Of a stretch of 64,000 nt of DNA, positions 10,757 through 21,255 are shown piece by piece (positions within the stretch are counted from its first letter, which is position 1; each line of letters opens with the position of its first letter). A program made the translations under genes and the position numbers. The notes under the pieces were generated by a model. That model was not told the DNA's origin and searched no databases. It saw nothing but the letters and a program-made list of their open reading frames with translations. The stretch covers positions 287,770-351,769 of the forward strand of contig JBEKNE010000001.1 in the NCBI GenBank assembly GCA_049523135.1, written 5' to 3'. The stretch comes from Candidatus Microgenomates bacterium. Its GTDB lineage: Bacteria; Patescibacteriota; Microgenomatia; UBA8517.

Positions 10757-11806
10757 ATGCAAGATATTGATGGAAAGGTTGATCAAATGACCTCCCGTTT
10801 GAATAAATTAATTGAGGTGGTGGATATTCCGAGTAAAAAGAAGAAAATAGAGGAACTTGAGGCTAAAGCGGCTGAGCCTTCTCTTTGGAACGATCCTCAA
10901 AGTGCCCGCGGGGTTACGCAGGAGCTTTCCGACCTGAAAAAGGAGGTGGAGGAAATTACCGATCTTTCGGATACGTTGGAAATTCTGAAGGAAGTGCCGG
11001 ATGAAGCCGAGGCCAGAAAGGCCGAGAAAGCTCTCGGGAAGCTTGAGCTAATATCTTATTTATCGGGTGAATATGATGCTAAAAACGCCCTAATTTCAAT
11101 CCATGCCGGCCAGGGAGGGACTGAAGCGATGGATTGGACAAATATGCTTTACCGCATGTATCTCAGGTTCTGCGAGCGTCAGGGATGGCCTACAGAGACT
11201 CTGGATTACACGGCTGGGGAAGAAGCCGGAGTCAAAAGTGTAACTTTTAAGGTTACGGGGCACTTCGCCTATGGCTACCTTAAGGGTGAGGCAGGAACCC
11301 ACAGGCTTGTCAGACAGTCTCCATTCAATGCGGATAAGCTTAGGCAAACTTCATTCGCCTTGGTTGAAGTGATGCCTGAGCTTGCCGATACCGATCTTAA
11401 GGATATTGAGATCAAGGATACCGACCTGGATTGGCAGTTCATTCACGCAGGAGGACATGGGGGTCAGAATGTAAATAAGGTGGCGACAGCAGTCCGGCTT
11501 ACCCACGTCCCGACAGGGATTGTAATTACGGCTTCAACCGAACGTTTTCAGGAACAAAATAGAAAAGCAGCCCTGGAACTACTGCGTGCCAAGCTTTGGA
11601 TTAGGCAGCAGGAAGTTGAGAAAGGTTTGAAAAAGGAGATTAAGGGTGACTATCGTCCGGCTTCATGGGGAACTCAAATCCGAAGCTATGTTCTTCATCC
11701 ATATAAGATGGTTAAAGATCTTCGTACGGATGTGGAAATCGGAAATACTGAGGCCGTTCTTGATGGAGGAATTGATGAATTTATAGATGCTGAGTTAAAA
11801 CTCTAA
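10757..11806 (+). CDS. prfB: Peptide chain release factor 2 (contiguous ORF, no programmed +1 frameshift)
   Basis: SPF tripeptide (RQSPFNA) and GGQ motif (HAGGHGGQNVNK); aligns along its length with RF2. Start at MQDIDGKVDQ, by homology with RF2 N-termini. Confidence 0.9.
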   Translation: MQDIDGKVDQMTSRLNKLIEVVDIPSKKKKIEELEAKAAEPSLWNDPQSARGVTQELSDLKKEVEEITDLSDTLEILKEVPDEAEARKAEKALGKLELISYLSGEYDAKNALISIHAGQGGTEAMDWTNMLYRMYLRFCERQGWPTETLDYTAGEEAGVKSVTFKVTGHFAYGYLKGEAGTHRLVRQSPFNADKLRQTSFALVEVMPELADTDLKDIEIKDTDLDWQFIHAGGHGGQNVNKVATAVRLTHVPTGIVITASTERFQEQNRKAALELLRAKLWIRQQEVEKGLKKEIKGDYRPASWGTQIRSYVLHPYKMVKDLRTDVEIGNTEAVLDGGIDEFIDAELKL

Positions 11807-18811: not shown

Positions 18812-19312
18812 ATGAATGAAAAAGACGGTCTATTTATAAGTCCCACCAAAGGTAGGATGACTTCTTCTGAGGCTATTGAGGATATATCAAAATTTATAAA
18901 TGAAATGCCTGAAAAGTTTTACCGGATCGTAATAGGTTCGGATTCTCAGGCCAAAAGGACCAACGGTAAAAGCGAAGTTGACTATGTTACGGCTTTGATA
19001 GTCCATCGGGAAGGCTGTGGAGCCAGGTATTTTTGGAGGAAGGAAAAAGTTTTTCAGACTCCAATTCTGAGGGATAAAATTTATAGAGAAACTTCAATGT
19101 CGCTTGCCACCGCCGAGGAAGTAGTTCCTCTCCTTAGGGAAGCTATTTCCCCCACAAAATATAATTTTGAGATCCATATTGATGTTGGACCCTTGGGTCC
19201 TACCCGCGATATGATAAACGAGGTAACCGGTATGGTTCAGGGAAACGGCTTCAAAGCCAAAACCAAGCCCGAGAGCTGGGGAGCTTCAACTGTTGCGGAT
19301 AAACACACCTAA
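18812..19312 (+). CDS. Hypothetical protein (possibly YkuK/DUF458-like RNase-H-like fold; assignment from memory only)
   Basis: 166-aa ORF preceded by TTGATC-17-TATAAT. No motif I can assign firmly. Confidence 0.45.
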   Translation: MNEKDGLFISPTKGRMTSSEAIEDISKFINEMPEKFYRIVIGSDSQAKRTNGKSEVDYVTALIVHREGCGARYFWRKEKVFQTPILRDKIYRETSMSLATAEEVVPLLREAISPTKYNFEIHIDVGPLGPTRDMINEVTGMVQGNGFKAKTKPESWGASTVADKHT

Positions 19313-19325
19313 ATACCCTGTAGTC

Positions 19326-19354
19326 TTGACTTTTAGATTCAGTAGTGGTAGCAT
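19326..19354 (+). promoter_or_regulatory. Possible promoter (TTGACT - 17 nt - TAGCAT) driving a ~135-nt leader for the GC-rich Nudix-like gene
   Basis: Hexamers at 19326-19331 and 19349-19354; a strong AAGGAG RBS lies downstream at ~19481-19486. Confidence 0.35.
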
Positions 19355-19422
19355 CTCTCCGTTCGTGGAATAACTCGCCCTTTCAAATCAGCTTCAAATT
19401 ACACCCTAAATTCATTTTAGAG

Positions 19423-19437
19423 GTGCCCGAACAATTT
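19423..19437. repeat. Left arm of an inverted-repeat pair flanking the GC-rich gene (GTGCCCGAACAATT)
   Basis: A perfect 12-nt reverse-complement match (GTGCCCGAACAA vs TTGTTCGGGCAC at 20183-20194), extending to 15 nt with one mismatch. GC-rich in an AT-rich background. Confidence 0.6.
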
Positions 19438-19494
19438 TGGGTAAAAAACTGTTATAAATCTATATTTTGAAAAGCCAAGAAAAGGAGAAAAGAA

Positions 19495-20181
19495 ATGGCT
19501 ACTCAGAAGTTCGTTCCTGTAAGTGAAATCGATTCCAAACTTCTTCCGAAAATTCAAAATTACCTTCCAAGGTATGAGAACGGCATTTTTGTCGGTCTCG
19601 GAAAAACCGGGAAAGATTCGTACATTCGTGGATTCGTCTGCGATGTCGAAGATGACGGAACGATCGTAAAAGTCAGGTACGATGCCCTCAAGAAATTTGA
19701 TGGGCTTGTCGGCGAAGACGGTCATGCGACTCCAAGCGCGGTTATGGTGGTTGCGGAAAGTCGTGCAGACGGCATCTATCTCTATTGTGCCCCTGAGTAT
19801 CGCGTCTTTATCTATGACCATGTTAATAATCAACTTGGTGTTACAGTAGAAGGCTTTGCGGGCGGATTTACGGAAAAAGGTAAGGAACCGGCGGAGACGG
19901 CATTGGAAGAGGTTCTTCAGGAACATGGTATTGTTGTCGGAGCCGTTTGGCCTATTGTGCGAATCGGATATGCCTCGGATAATCGAGCCATGACTGAGAC
20001 GTGCATTGAATATTATCTTGGTATGTTTGAACGCCAGGTCGGCCAAGATCTACAAGGGGATGAAGTTATCCAAAAAACCGAAGCAATTCGTGTCGATCAC
20101 TTTGTTCCCGGTCTTGACGGTATCGTCGATACGGCTTACGCTTTCTTGGTTTCGCACCTCAAGCTTGTCAAGCCAATGTAA
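19495..20181 (+). CDS. Nudix-fold protein with degenerate Nudix box; GC-rich, probably horizontally acquired
   Basis: Strong AAGGAG RBS 8 nt upstream of ATG. The segment GGFTEKGKEPAETALEEVLQEHGI aligns position-by-position with the Nudix box but has K, E and Q at three catalytic positions. GC content is clearly higher than in neighbouring genes. Confidence 0.6.
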   Translation: MATQKFVPVSEIDSKLLPKIQNYLPRYENGIFVGLGKTGKDSYIRGFVCDVEDDGTIVKVRYDALKKFDGLVGEDGHATPSAVMVVAESRADGIYLYCAPEYRVFIYDHVNNQLGVTVEGFAGGFTEKGKEPAETALEEVLQEHGIVVGAVWPIVRIGYASDNRAMTETCIEYYLGMFERQVGQDLQGDEVIQKTEAIRVDHFVPGLDGIVDTAYAFLVSHLKLVKPM

Positions 20182-20194
20182 TTTGTTCGGGCAC
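20180..20194. repeat. Right arm of the inverted-repeat pair (AATTTGTTCGGGCAC), abutting the stop codon of the Nudix-like gene
   Basis: See the left arm; the arm centres are 758 bp apart. Confidence 0.6.
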
Positions 20195-20202
20195 TTCTGG
20201 CG

Positions 20203-20261
20203 CCAGCCCCTCTTGGGAATACTGTATCAATTGCTGCTACTGATACAAAAGAGGTGGCTGG
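20203..20261 (+). other. Branched stem-loop: 12-bp GC-rich outer stem with one bulged T, enclosing a 34-nt loop that contains a nested 6-7 bp hairpin (GTATCA...TGATAC)
   Basis: CCAGCCCCTCTT (20203-20214) pairs with AAGAGG-T-GGCTGG (20249-20261). Inner stem 20224-20229/20241-20246. Confidence 0.45.
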
Positions 20262-20279
20262 TTGTCATGAAGAAGTTGC

Positions 20280-20340
20280 CTGTGCGGTTGTAAGAATTTT
20301 AATTTACAAAAATTAAAAGATCCCAACCGCACAGCAAGAA
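20280..20340 (+). terminator. Second branched stem-loop (11-bp outer stem CTGTGCGGTTG/CAACCGCACAG with a nested perfect 9-bp AT hairpin) followed by a T-rich tract; probable intrinsic terminator for the 19495..20181 transcript
   Basis: Outer stem 20280-20290/20324-20334; inner TTTTAATTT-acaa-AAATTAAAA at 20297-20318; downstream sequence ...attttcatttttta. Confidence 0.4.
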
Positions 20341-20427
20341 TAAAGTATTTTCATTTTTTATATACAAACTTCATGTTTGTTGAAGCAATTCAAGACCAAT
20401 TCCTATTTTTCGAATCTTAATTGAAGA

Positions 20428-20456
20428 TTGCATCTCGTCGTTTCTTTTGCTACTAT
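20428..20456 (+). promoter_or_regulatory. Sigma70-like promoter (TTGCAT - 17 nt - TACTAT) 7 nt upstream of the rfbF ATG (leaderless-type)
   Basis: Hexamers at 20428-20433 and 20451-20456; ATG at 20464; no SD. Confidence 0.45.
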
Positions 20457-20463
20457 TTAAGCC

Positions 20464-21255
20464 ATGCAGACAGTTATTTTGTGCGGCGGCAAGGGCACAA
20501 GAATGAAAGAAGAGACGGAATTTCGTCCCAAGCCACTGGTTGAGATAGGTGGTATACCAATCCTCTGGCATATTATGCAAATCTACATGTACTATGGTTA
20601 TAACGACTTCATCTTGGCGTTAGGATATAAGGGAAACATGATCCGCGACCTATTTAAGGAGTGGTATACAAATACGAACGATTTCTCCATTGATATGTCT
20701 ACCGGTAAGACTACGGTTTTGAGTAATAGGCAGAGAAATTTTAAAGTCACTTTGGTAGAGACCGGGGACACACCCGATAAAGAAATCTTAACCGGTGAGA
20801 GAATTTTAAGGACAGCCCCATACATTAAAGGTGATGAATTTATGCTTACCTATGGTGACGGGGTTTCCGATATCGATATAAAGAAAGTCGTAGACTTTCA
20901 TCATAAGATGGGAACTCTGGCTACTGTTTCAGGTGTCCATCCCAAATCCAGATTCGGCCTTGTCGAAAGAGATAATAAAACAGGACTGGTTACTCAGTTT
21001 AGTCAGTATCCTGTCATGCGTGAGTATATAAGTGGAGGTTTTATGGTTTTTAAAAGAAAAGCCTTGGACTATTTTACAGACGGTCAGATGGAAGAAGGTT
21101 TGGGTCATCTTGCTGAAGACAAGCAGTTATCAATGTATATTCACGAAGGATTCTGGAAGGCTGTTGATACATATAAAGAATTGGAACAACTTAATCAGCT
21201 TTGGTATGATGGCCGTCCTTGGGCCGTATGGGAGAAAAAAGATAATCAGAAATGA
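20464..21255 (+). CDS. rfbF: Glucose-1-phosphate cytidylyltransferase
   Basis: Near-collinear similarity to Salmonella RfbF/Yersinia DdhA: MQTVILCGGKGTRMKEE..RPKPLVEIGGIPILWHIM ... LTYGDGVSDIDI ... GGFMVF. Confidence 0.9.
   Translation: MQTVILCGGKGTRMKEETEFRPKPLVEIGGIPILWHIMQIYMYYGYNDFILALGYKGNMIRDLFKEWYTNTNDFSIDMSTGKTTVLSNRQRNFKVTLVETGDTPDKEILTGERILRTAPYIKGDEFMLTYGDGVSDIDIKKVVDFHHKMGTLATVSGVHPKSRFGLVERDNKTGLVTQFSQYPVMREYISGGFMVFKRKALDYFTDGQMEEGLGHLAEDKQLSMYIHEGFWKAVDTYKELEQLNQLWYDGRPWAVWEKKDNQK

Follow-up and report, generated by a model that had tools for sequence, protein, structure and literature searches.

The 64,000-nucleotide (nt) stretch analysed here, referred to as the window, comes from a Candidatus Microgenomates bacterium (contig JBEKNE010000001.1) and carries on its forward strand a gene for a 228-amino-acid (aa) Nudix-like protein that is bracketed by an inverted repeat. 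The gene belongs to a module made of a promoter, a long leader with a Shine-Dalgarno sequence, the open reading frame (ORF) and a structured 3′ untranslated region (UTR). Sequence comparison with related loci indicates that the inverted repeat is most likely an RNA helix that would join the leader with the sequence just past the stop codon, and not the ends of a mobile element. The features of the module are as follows:

19301..20344, + strand: the entire conserved module, from promoter and leader through the ORF to the structured 3′ UTR, delimited by blastn against locus L001
19303..19325, + strand: element just upstream of the −35 box, ATACCCTGTAGTC, seen by eye in most homologous loci, with the family pattern TAYCCYRTAR
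19326..19354, + strand: sigma-70-type promoter from a promoter scan, TTGACT, 17 nt, TG-n-TAGCAT (extended −10)
19362..19494, + strand: predicted 5′ leader of ∼133 nt, with its start placed from the promoter and its sequence conserved across loci
19402..19425, + strand: local leader hairpin, CACCCUAAA / UUUAG(A)GGUG, whose 3′ half overlaps the 5′ arm
19419..19434, + strand: 5′ arm of the putative long-range helix, perfect core at 19423 to 19434
19482..19487, + strand: Shine-Dalgarno sequence AAGGAG, 7 nt before the ATG
19495..20181, + strand: Nudix-fold protein of 228 aa with a degenerate box, of the ADP-ribose/nucleoside diphosphate (NDP)-sugar hydrolase type according to Pfam, AlphaFold and Foldseek
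20183..20198, + strand: 3′ arm of the putative long-range helix, perfect core at 20183 to 20194, 2 nt after the stop codon
20199..20266, + strand: 3′ UTR hairpin 1, from the minimum free energy (MFE) fold of the whole mRNA, with structure kept and sequence varying across loci
20276..20337, + strand: 3′ UTR hairpin 2, UUGCCUGUGCGGUUG ... CAACCGCACAGCAA, from RNAalifold (columns 297 to 307 with 356 to 365) and the MFE fold

The core of the 5′ arm, GTGCCCGAACAA, occupies positions 19423 to 19434, and its exact reverse complement occupies positions 20183 to 20194, beginning 2 nt past the TAA stop codon (20179 to 20181) of the ORF. The perfect 12-base-pair (bp) inverted repeat reported in the preliminary description of this DNA is real and its second copy lies where it was placed, but the coordinates given for the first copy (19425 to 19436) were off by 2 nt. 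With one G·U pair allowed, the complementarity extends to 16 contiguous pairs between AGAGGUGCCCGAACAA (19419 to 19434) and UUGUUCGGGCACUUCU (20183 to 20198), and a repeat finder retrieved arms of 19 nt with 89% complementarity. Six separated perfect inverted repeats of at least 12 bp within 1 kb occur in the window, the present pair being the longest separated one on extension. The statement that such a repeat is unlikely to arise by chance was thus too strong for the repeat taken alone, but its conservation in other genomes rules chance out. The 12-mer, searched with up to one mismatch, matches only the two arms within the 64 kb. When the 200 nt upstream of each of 56 window genes were compared with the 43 nt around and after its stop codon, complementarity of 12 or more Watson-Crick pairs (18 when G·U is counted) was found only for the Nudix-like gene, and the runner-up genes reached 10 and 14 pairs.

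The two arms were compared across 17 distinct homologous loci from Patescibacteria metagenomes, and a duplex joining the 5′ UTR to the 3′ UTR is present in 14 of them. It measures 16 to 21 bp across loci, with versions of 10 to 12 bp in clade B and in L027, the second locus of the window genome described below. The 3′ arm motif starts 0 to 7 nt after the stop codon in 10 of the 11 clade-A-type loci and 16 nt after it in L017. The two arms vary in concert: pairs such as GAAUAA/UUAUUC occur in the arms of L001 and CCCAAAC/GUUUGGG in those of L018, L020, and L021, while U·G pairs are found in the arms of L005, L006, L008, L010, and L017. Unguided RNAalifold on the fused UTRs gave the long-range helix as the main predicted feature, with G-C replaced by A-U in three sequences and C-G replaced by U-A with a U·G intermediate. 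In the alignment of 11 sequences, 91% of the helix cells are paired, compared with 37 to 56% when the partner strand is slid. Five pairs of this alignment are changed on both sides, and the covariation score of the helix exceeds that of 500 out of 500 shuffles. Within the helix core, every non-Watson-Crick cell is a G·U or U·G, except for one U·C in L018, and A·C is absent. This asymmetry points to plus-strand RNA rather than to DNA repeats. Conserved complementarity with covariation, one of the features of long-range interactions between bacterial 5′ and 3′ UTRs of the hbs or icaR type, is thus found here.

In distant clades the 5′-3′ helix is re-wired, with CCUUGAACAAA/UUUGUUCAAGG as its strands in L013, L015, and L026 and UGGGCACCUUGA/UCAAGGUGCCCA in L024. 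The leaders of L013, L015, and L026 also contain GAGGUGCC, which has a local partner in GGCACCUU, while the neighbouring CCUUGAACAAA is matched to the 3′ UTR. Between the arms of L024, GGUGCCC and GGGCACC have exchanged polarity. For the window module, the MFE and centroid folds of the 989-nt predicted whole mRNA both contain the helix. The MFE fold shows a possible second long-range pairing, of leader CAGCUUC (19389 to 19395) with GAAGUUG (20272 to 20278). In conflict with the MFE fold, RNAalifold assigns this part of the leader to the 3′ side of hairpin 1, and the conservation is patchy. A kissing interaction of leader UCAAAUUG with the hairpin-1 loop GCAAUUGC was also considered and dropped, as no consistent covariation was seen by eye.

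The module carries its own expression signals. TTGAC followed by an extended −10 box at the matching position occurs in 13 of 14 homologous loci, and the hidden Markov model (HMM) built on the leader also aligns the promoter. This conserved promoter precedes the 5′ arm by ∼65 nt, and beyond the 3′ arm come hairpins or terminators. The TAYCCYRTAR motif in front of the −35 box could serve as a regulator site or as an UP-like element. The leader was first described as ∼135 nt long with an AAGGAG sequence, in good agreement with the ∼133 nt that the promoter predicts. The canonical AAGGAG was found in 1 of 57 window genes, which is the Nudix-like gene, and the homologous loci have AAGGAG, or a version of it differing in one base, ahead of the start codon. 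In the window, the 5′ arm sits 47 to 60 nt upstream of the Shine-Dalgarno sequence and leaves it free. That nearby operon-leading genes have essentially no leader and no Shine-Dalgarno sequence, as also described at first, holds strongly: most operon-leading genes of the window have a −10-like box (TATAAT, TACAAT, or TATACT) 6 to 12 nt before the ATG, as upstream of 7919, 5183, 18812, 28666, and 36806, and no Shine-Dalgarno sequence. Since the box lies so close to the start codon, this suggests that the mRNAs of the window are predominantly leaderless.

The leader hairpin at 19402 to 19425 has 95% of its cells paired, compared with 35 to 41% in slid controls. Its variation consists of one A-U to U-A swap in three sequences and of U·G variants, and its counterpart in L027 is CGCC/GGCG. 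The stretch AGAGGUG is common to this hairpin and to the 5′ arm, and the two structures would therefore compete or stack. Downstream of the ORF, equivalents of hairpin 1 are formed by different sequences in L005, L006, L008, L018, and L020. A U-run comes after the hairpin past the 3′ arm in L005, L022, and L027, and none directly follows hairpin 1 or hairpin 2 in the window. Hairpin 2 is conserved in 9 of 10 clade-A loci. A small ORF in the 3′ UTR (ATGAAGAAG at 20268) was rejected because its ATG is absent from L010, L017, L018, L020, and L021. No tRNA or tmRNA was found in the 64-kb window, and Rfam 15 gave no match at the gathering score across the whole window, with only noise over 19300 to 20470 (E values from 0.16 in a search up to an E value of 10).

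The preliminary description assigned the protein to the Nudix fold with a degenerate box, and both parts of this assignment were borne out, by Foldseek and by the profile-aligned box. The Pfam NUDIX family (PF00293) scores 17.8 bits, below its gathering score of 21.1, and several relatives have precomputed PF00293 matches. The AlphaFold model of the 228-aa protein has a predicted local distance difference test (pLDDT) value of 80.5. Foldseek retrieved 357 matches in the PDB at an E value of ≤0.001, and the top matches (5c7q, NudF, NUDT5, and YffH) have TM-scores of 0.55 to 0.72. The fold match has an E value of 6e-8 over ∼200 aligned columns, and sequence identity is 10 to 15%. The predicted structure thus has the Nudix fold and resembles the ADP-ribose pyrophosphatase/NDP-sugar hydrolase subfamily (Bd3179 5c7q, NudF, NUDT5, and YffH) over the full-length fold, which consists of an N-terminal beta domain and the Nudix domain. 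The protein differs from this subfamily in its Pfam score below the gathering score and in a box without three signature residues. With the register set by profile alignment to the ADP-ribose pyrophosphatase/activator chain 8zr8_A, the box reads G-FTEKG-K-EPAETAL-E-E-V-L-Q-E-H-G-I and departs from the consensus GX5EX7REUXEEXGU through the replacements E to K, R to E, and E to Q. E139, E143, and G145 are invariant in the family, and clade B retains R-E-L-x-A-E. The family comprises 37 protein clusters in a collection of 5.8 billion sequences, and one locus emerged when 185,579 species genomes were scanned with a pattern, from which we conclude that it is rare and patchy. PADLOC and PHROGs gave no match for the Nudix-like protein or for the 120-aa protein encoded at L027.

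The gene was also said to have a higher guanine-plus-cytosine (GC) content than its neighbours and to use different codons (GGC, GCG, and CGT). Its GC content is indeed 0.469, compared with a gene mean of 0.387 (standard deviation [SD], 0.033), and is the highest in the window, but it is tied with that of a release-factor-2-like gene (10757 to 11806; SPF and GGQ motifs), which has a GC content of 0.468 and a GC content at third codon positions (GC3) of 0.454. Because a core gene such as release factor 2 equals this value, GC content alone is no proof of foreign origin. The excess resides largely at codon position 1 (0.624), since the protein is rich in V, G, E, and D, and the GC3 of 0.437 is raised but not extreme (mean, 0.345; SD, 0.05). 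The gene favours CGN, GTC, ACG, TCG, CTC, GGC, and GCG and lacks AGA, so that the preference for CGN, GGC, and GCG stands, but its codon choice is only moderately atypical (Karlin B of 0.41, rank 4 of 57). The Nudix-like gene is GC-richer than its own locus in 17 of 17 genomes, by 3 to 18 points, as in L005 (0.555 versus 0.423) and L019 (0.597 versus 0.418), with GC3 values of up to 0.74. Selection for RNA structure in the ORF was rejected as the cause of the GC content, as the z score against synonymous-codon shuffles is −1.0, like that of control genes (10 of the 14 genes run).

The module is discrete, relocatable and compositionally odd, and it occupies two alternative chromosomal slots. 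Comparison with its closest relative, L001, shows 88% nucleotide identity over 19301 to 20344, with sharp ends and unrelated flanks. In the first slot, shared by the window, L018, L020, and L021, it lies upstream of a cytidine diphosphate (CDP)-sugar operon encoding a glucose-1-phosphate cytidylyltransferase, a dehydratase, RmlC, and RmlD, and the modules of L008 and L019 lie nearby in sugar clusters. This recurrent position beside nucleotide-sugar genes fits a protein resembling ADP-ribose/NDP-sugar hydrolases. In the second slot, the module lies between sortase and rho (L005, L006, and L010) or directly upstream of rho (also L001, L013, L017, and L026). The window module is closest to the rho-slot modules, although it is located in the sugar slot. 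In the window, a gene of the RNaseH_like family (PF04308; 18812 to 19312) lies between a GalU-like gene and the module, and in L018 and L021, and probably also in L020, the module's immediate upstream neighbour encodes a major facilitator superfamily transporter. An extra gene is found between the module and rho in L017 (4817 to 5632; 271 aa, no Pfam family) and in L026 (4832 to 5695; 287 aa, inositol-monophosphatase-like), and the rho slot seems to accept insertions. A cassette exchange between L013 and L026, whose Rho proteins are 99% and Nudix-like proteins 79% identical, was considered and rejected because the neighbouring DNA is equally diverged (83 to 89% nucleotide identity), and the contrast arises because Rho is very conserved.

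With the leader HMM, a single copy is found in the window, and a second, diverged one lies elsewhere in this genome, at the rho locus (L027/L028), where a different ORF, of 120 aa, is found between sortase and rho (L027, 7294 to 7860). This ORF is unrelated to the Nudix family, but a homologous promoter and leader (nhmmer E value of 4e-16) and a Shine-Dalgarno sequence, AAGAGGAGG, lie in front of it. The complementary strands here would form a clamp of 10 bp, GCGCCCAAAC/GUUUGGGCGC, whose 3′ strand starts right behind the TGA and is followed by a terminator-like hairpin. Since this clamp brackets an unrelated ORF, the scaffold, and notably its stop-adjacent arm, has been retained around different cargo. 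The search for homologues of the 120-aa ORF among 1.84 billion representatives returned nothing beyond its own 45-aa fragment and a repeat artefact. The latter, P0160 (675 aa), was rejected as a homologue because it consists of near-perfect 64-aa tandem repeats and is apparently a translated DNA repeat. The single-sequence AlphaFold model of the 120-aa ORF is poor (pLDDT of 58).

These observations lead us to read the arms as the two strands of an RNA helix within one monocistronic mRNA, a clamp that probably protects the leader and thereby sets the lifetime and yield of the message, and we give this reading a probability of about 0.62. Transcription from the promoter at 19326 to 19354 would start the ∼133-nt leader, and the local hairpin at 19402 to 19425 would form first, during transcription. 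Once the 3′ arm is made, leader positions 19419 to 19434 would pair with positions 20183 to 20198, and this longer helix would either displace the local hairpin or stack on a shortened form of it, as in the fold of L027. With the second strand starting 2 nt past the stop codon, the Shine-Dalgarno sequence and the ORF would be enclosed in a loop of ∼750 nt. As the 3′ strand abuts the stop codon, a terminating ribosome would have to unwind the helix in part, so that the clamp would be closed on an idle mRNA and open on a translated one. The closed helix would alter the access of ribonucleases to the long leader, and by analogy with known transcripts it most likely shields the leader from them.

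The preliminary description had instead proposed a horizontally acquired cassette in the form of a miniature element bounded by terminal inverted repeats or of a module flanked by recombination sites. The first part of this proposal is in keeping with the sharp boundaries against L001, the module's own signals, its two slots, the patchy distribution of the family and the higher GC content in 17 of 17 genomes, although GC content alone is inconclusive about foreign origin. A DNA-level explanation, in which the arms are recombination sites or terminal inverted repeats of a mobile unit, or of a segment whose inversion would turn the ORF around with respect to the promoter, would account for the presence of the module in two different chromosomal slots among close relatives and for the GC excess of the gene over its host loci. 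It would also suit L027, where an unrelated ORF lies between homologous arms and the sequence from arm to ORF looks dissimilar by eye to that of the Nudix modules, and recombination too would maintain the complementarity of the arms. The arms are, however, not the ends of the element, because the homology with L001 continues ∼120 and ∼150 nt past them (for 118 nt before the 5′ arm and for 146 nt beyond the 3′ arm). No direct repeat indicative of a target-site duplication abuts the arms or the module ends, and the only flanking direct repeat (19080 to 19096 and 20357 to 20373) is off both boundaries. No recombinase or transposase was found among the neighbouring genes examined, and the gene is co-oriented with its neighbours in every locus with flanking genes recovered. 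The core mismatches are of the G·U type, with no A·C, a pattern that fits compensatory change in a plus-strand RNA helix. Further copies of the repeat and an empty site, which had been proposed as signs of such an element, were looked for as well: neither the window nor the loci contain multiple copies of the motif, and the rho slot of the window genome, looked at in an empty-site search of limited reach, is occupied. Patterns of 18 and 15 nt gave only chance-level matches in viral contigs, and these fail to fit the remainder of the leader HMM. The sequence GTTCGGG of the arm has a C at the first R of the integron core GTTRRRY and thus misfits an attC core, as judged without a full model search, and the flanking genes examined for an integron integrase encode nucleotide-sugar enzymes and an RNase H-like protein. 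We therefore consider a DNA element bounded by the arms highly improbable.

The remaining explanations keep the helix and change its role. The duplex could be a substrate of RNase III, serving either mRNA maturation, in which the leader and the 3′ UTR would be trimmed to paired ends in the manner of the processing stalks of rRNA and T7 mRNA, or the decay of untranslated mRNA. A helix of 16 to 21 bp is within the size range accepted by RNase III, and, being closed only when no ribosome terminates, it would direct cleavage to idle mRNA; the helices of L027 and clade B, on the other hand, have only 10 to 12 bp, which is short for this enzyme. Pairing of the two UTRs does promote RNase III cleavage in the icaR mRNA of Staphylococcus aureus, where the two UTRs of one transcript pair with each other and the 3′ UTR masks the Shine-Dalgarno sequence (PMC3868564). 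The 5′ arm described here lies 47 to 60 nt upstream of the Shine-Dalgarno sequence and, unlike in icaR, does not cover it. This opposite role of the helix, as a target of RNase III, appears unlikely to us, and by analogy we favour the protective, translation-sensitive clamp over it. The helix might also work as a read-through switch, in which the 5′ arm, by holding the 3′ arm, decides whether the downstream hairpins terminate transcription and so tunes the rho or the CDP-sugar operon. The U-run that follows the hairpin in L005, L022, and L027, as in intrinsic terminators, would suit such a switch, as would the constant co-orientation of the module with the downstream gene. It is very unlikely nevertheless: the downstream genes have promoters of their own (TTGACA...TATACT before rho and a −10-like box before the ATG at 20464), neither hairpin of the window directly precedes a U-run, and the same module would have to serve two unrelated downstream operons.

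Several points weigh against the protective clamp itself. No clamp is detectable in 3 of the homologous loci (L012, L019, and L022), so that it must be dispensable, and the ORF that it would enclose is no more structured than its synonymous-codon shuffles (z score of −1.0). The covariation comes from only ∼11 alignable sequences of few lineages, in which the double changes may represent just two or three events, and shuffle controls overstate significance for related sequences. Compensatory change alone would also be expected from DNA repeats homogenised by recombination, so that RNA in particular is favoured only by the G·U asymmetry, by the re-wiring seen in distant clades and by the overlap with the local hairpin. 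The start and the 3′ end of the transcript are predicted, as is helix formation in vivo, and whether the effect would be stabilising or destabilising is judged purely by analogy.

The nearest analogue is the hbs mRNA of Bacillus subtilis, in which a 14-bp interaction of the 5′ UTR with the 3′ UTR modulates cleavage by RNase Y in the leader and a strong Shine-Dalgarno sequence blocks RNase J1 (Braun, Durand and Condon 2017, PMC5737220). Both transcripts are monocistronic and have a long structured leader, a strong Shine-Dalgarno sequence and a UTR helix bracketing the ORF. The putative helix described here differs from that of hbs in its length of 16 to 21 bp, in a 3′ strand that mostly lies 0 to 7 nt after the stop codon, in its covariation across Patescibacteria lineages, in its overlap with a local leader hairpin, and in a host that appears largely leaderless. 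With icaR it shares the pairing of 5′ and 3′ UTRs within one mRNA and differs in that the Shine-Dalgarno sequence is unmasked. The fold-back of hok-type type I toxin mRNAs between the fbi and tac elements (PMC9841398) is similar in having a 5′-3′ helix supported by covariation and competing early local hairpins. It differs in that the hok message, a small toxin mRNA, is paired at its extreme ends and works with an antisense RNA, whereas the present arms are internal, ∼57 nt from the predicted 5′ end and ∼150 nt from the 3′ end of the module, and enclose ORFs of 228 and 120 aa. The promoter scan found no minus-strand promoter-like site within the module, and no antisense partner was seen.

The organization described here is probably a variant of a known mRNA architecture, conserved and covarying in uncultivated bacteria of the candidate phyla radiation and matching no Rfam family, and the helix, if confirmed, is a new candidate for RNA-family curation. 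It is unusual in three respects: the 3′ strand lies against the stop codon, which would couple structure to translation termination; the gene is the only one in 64 kb with a long leader and a canonical Shine-Dalgarno sequence among otherwise largely leaderless genes; and the scaffold also brackets an unrelated ORF elsewhere in the genome. The last of these raises the speculative and, in our estimation, unlikely idea that promoter, leader, arms and hairpin form a portable expression scaffold of Patescibacteria, with interchangeable cargo ORFs placed in a few fixed slots, a stop-adjacent arm that senses translation termination, and flanks that perhaps act as homology arms for cargo swapping. If true, this would be a new gene-cassette and expression system in bacteria with otherwise leaderless mRNAs. 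For genome scanning, the module illustrates that an inverted repeat around a gene need not mean mobile DNA. If confirmed, the clamp would provide a mutable handle on the control of mRNA stability and on the use of Shine-Dalgarno sequences in Patescibacteria.

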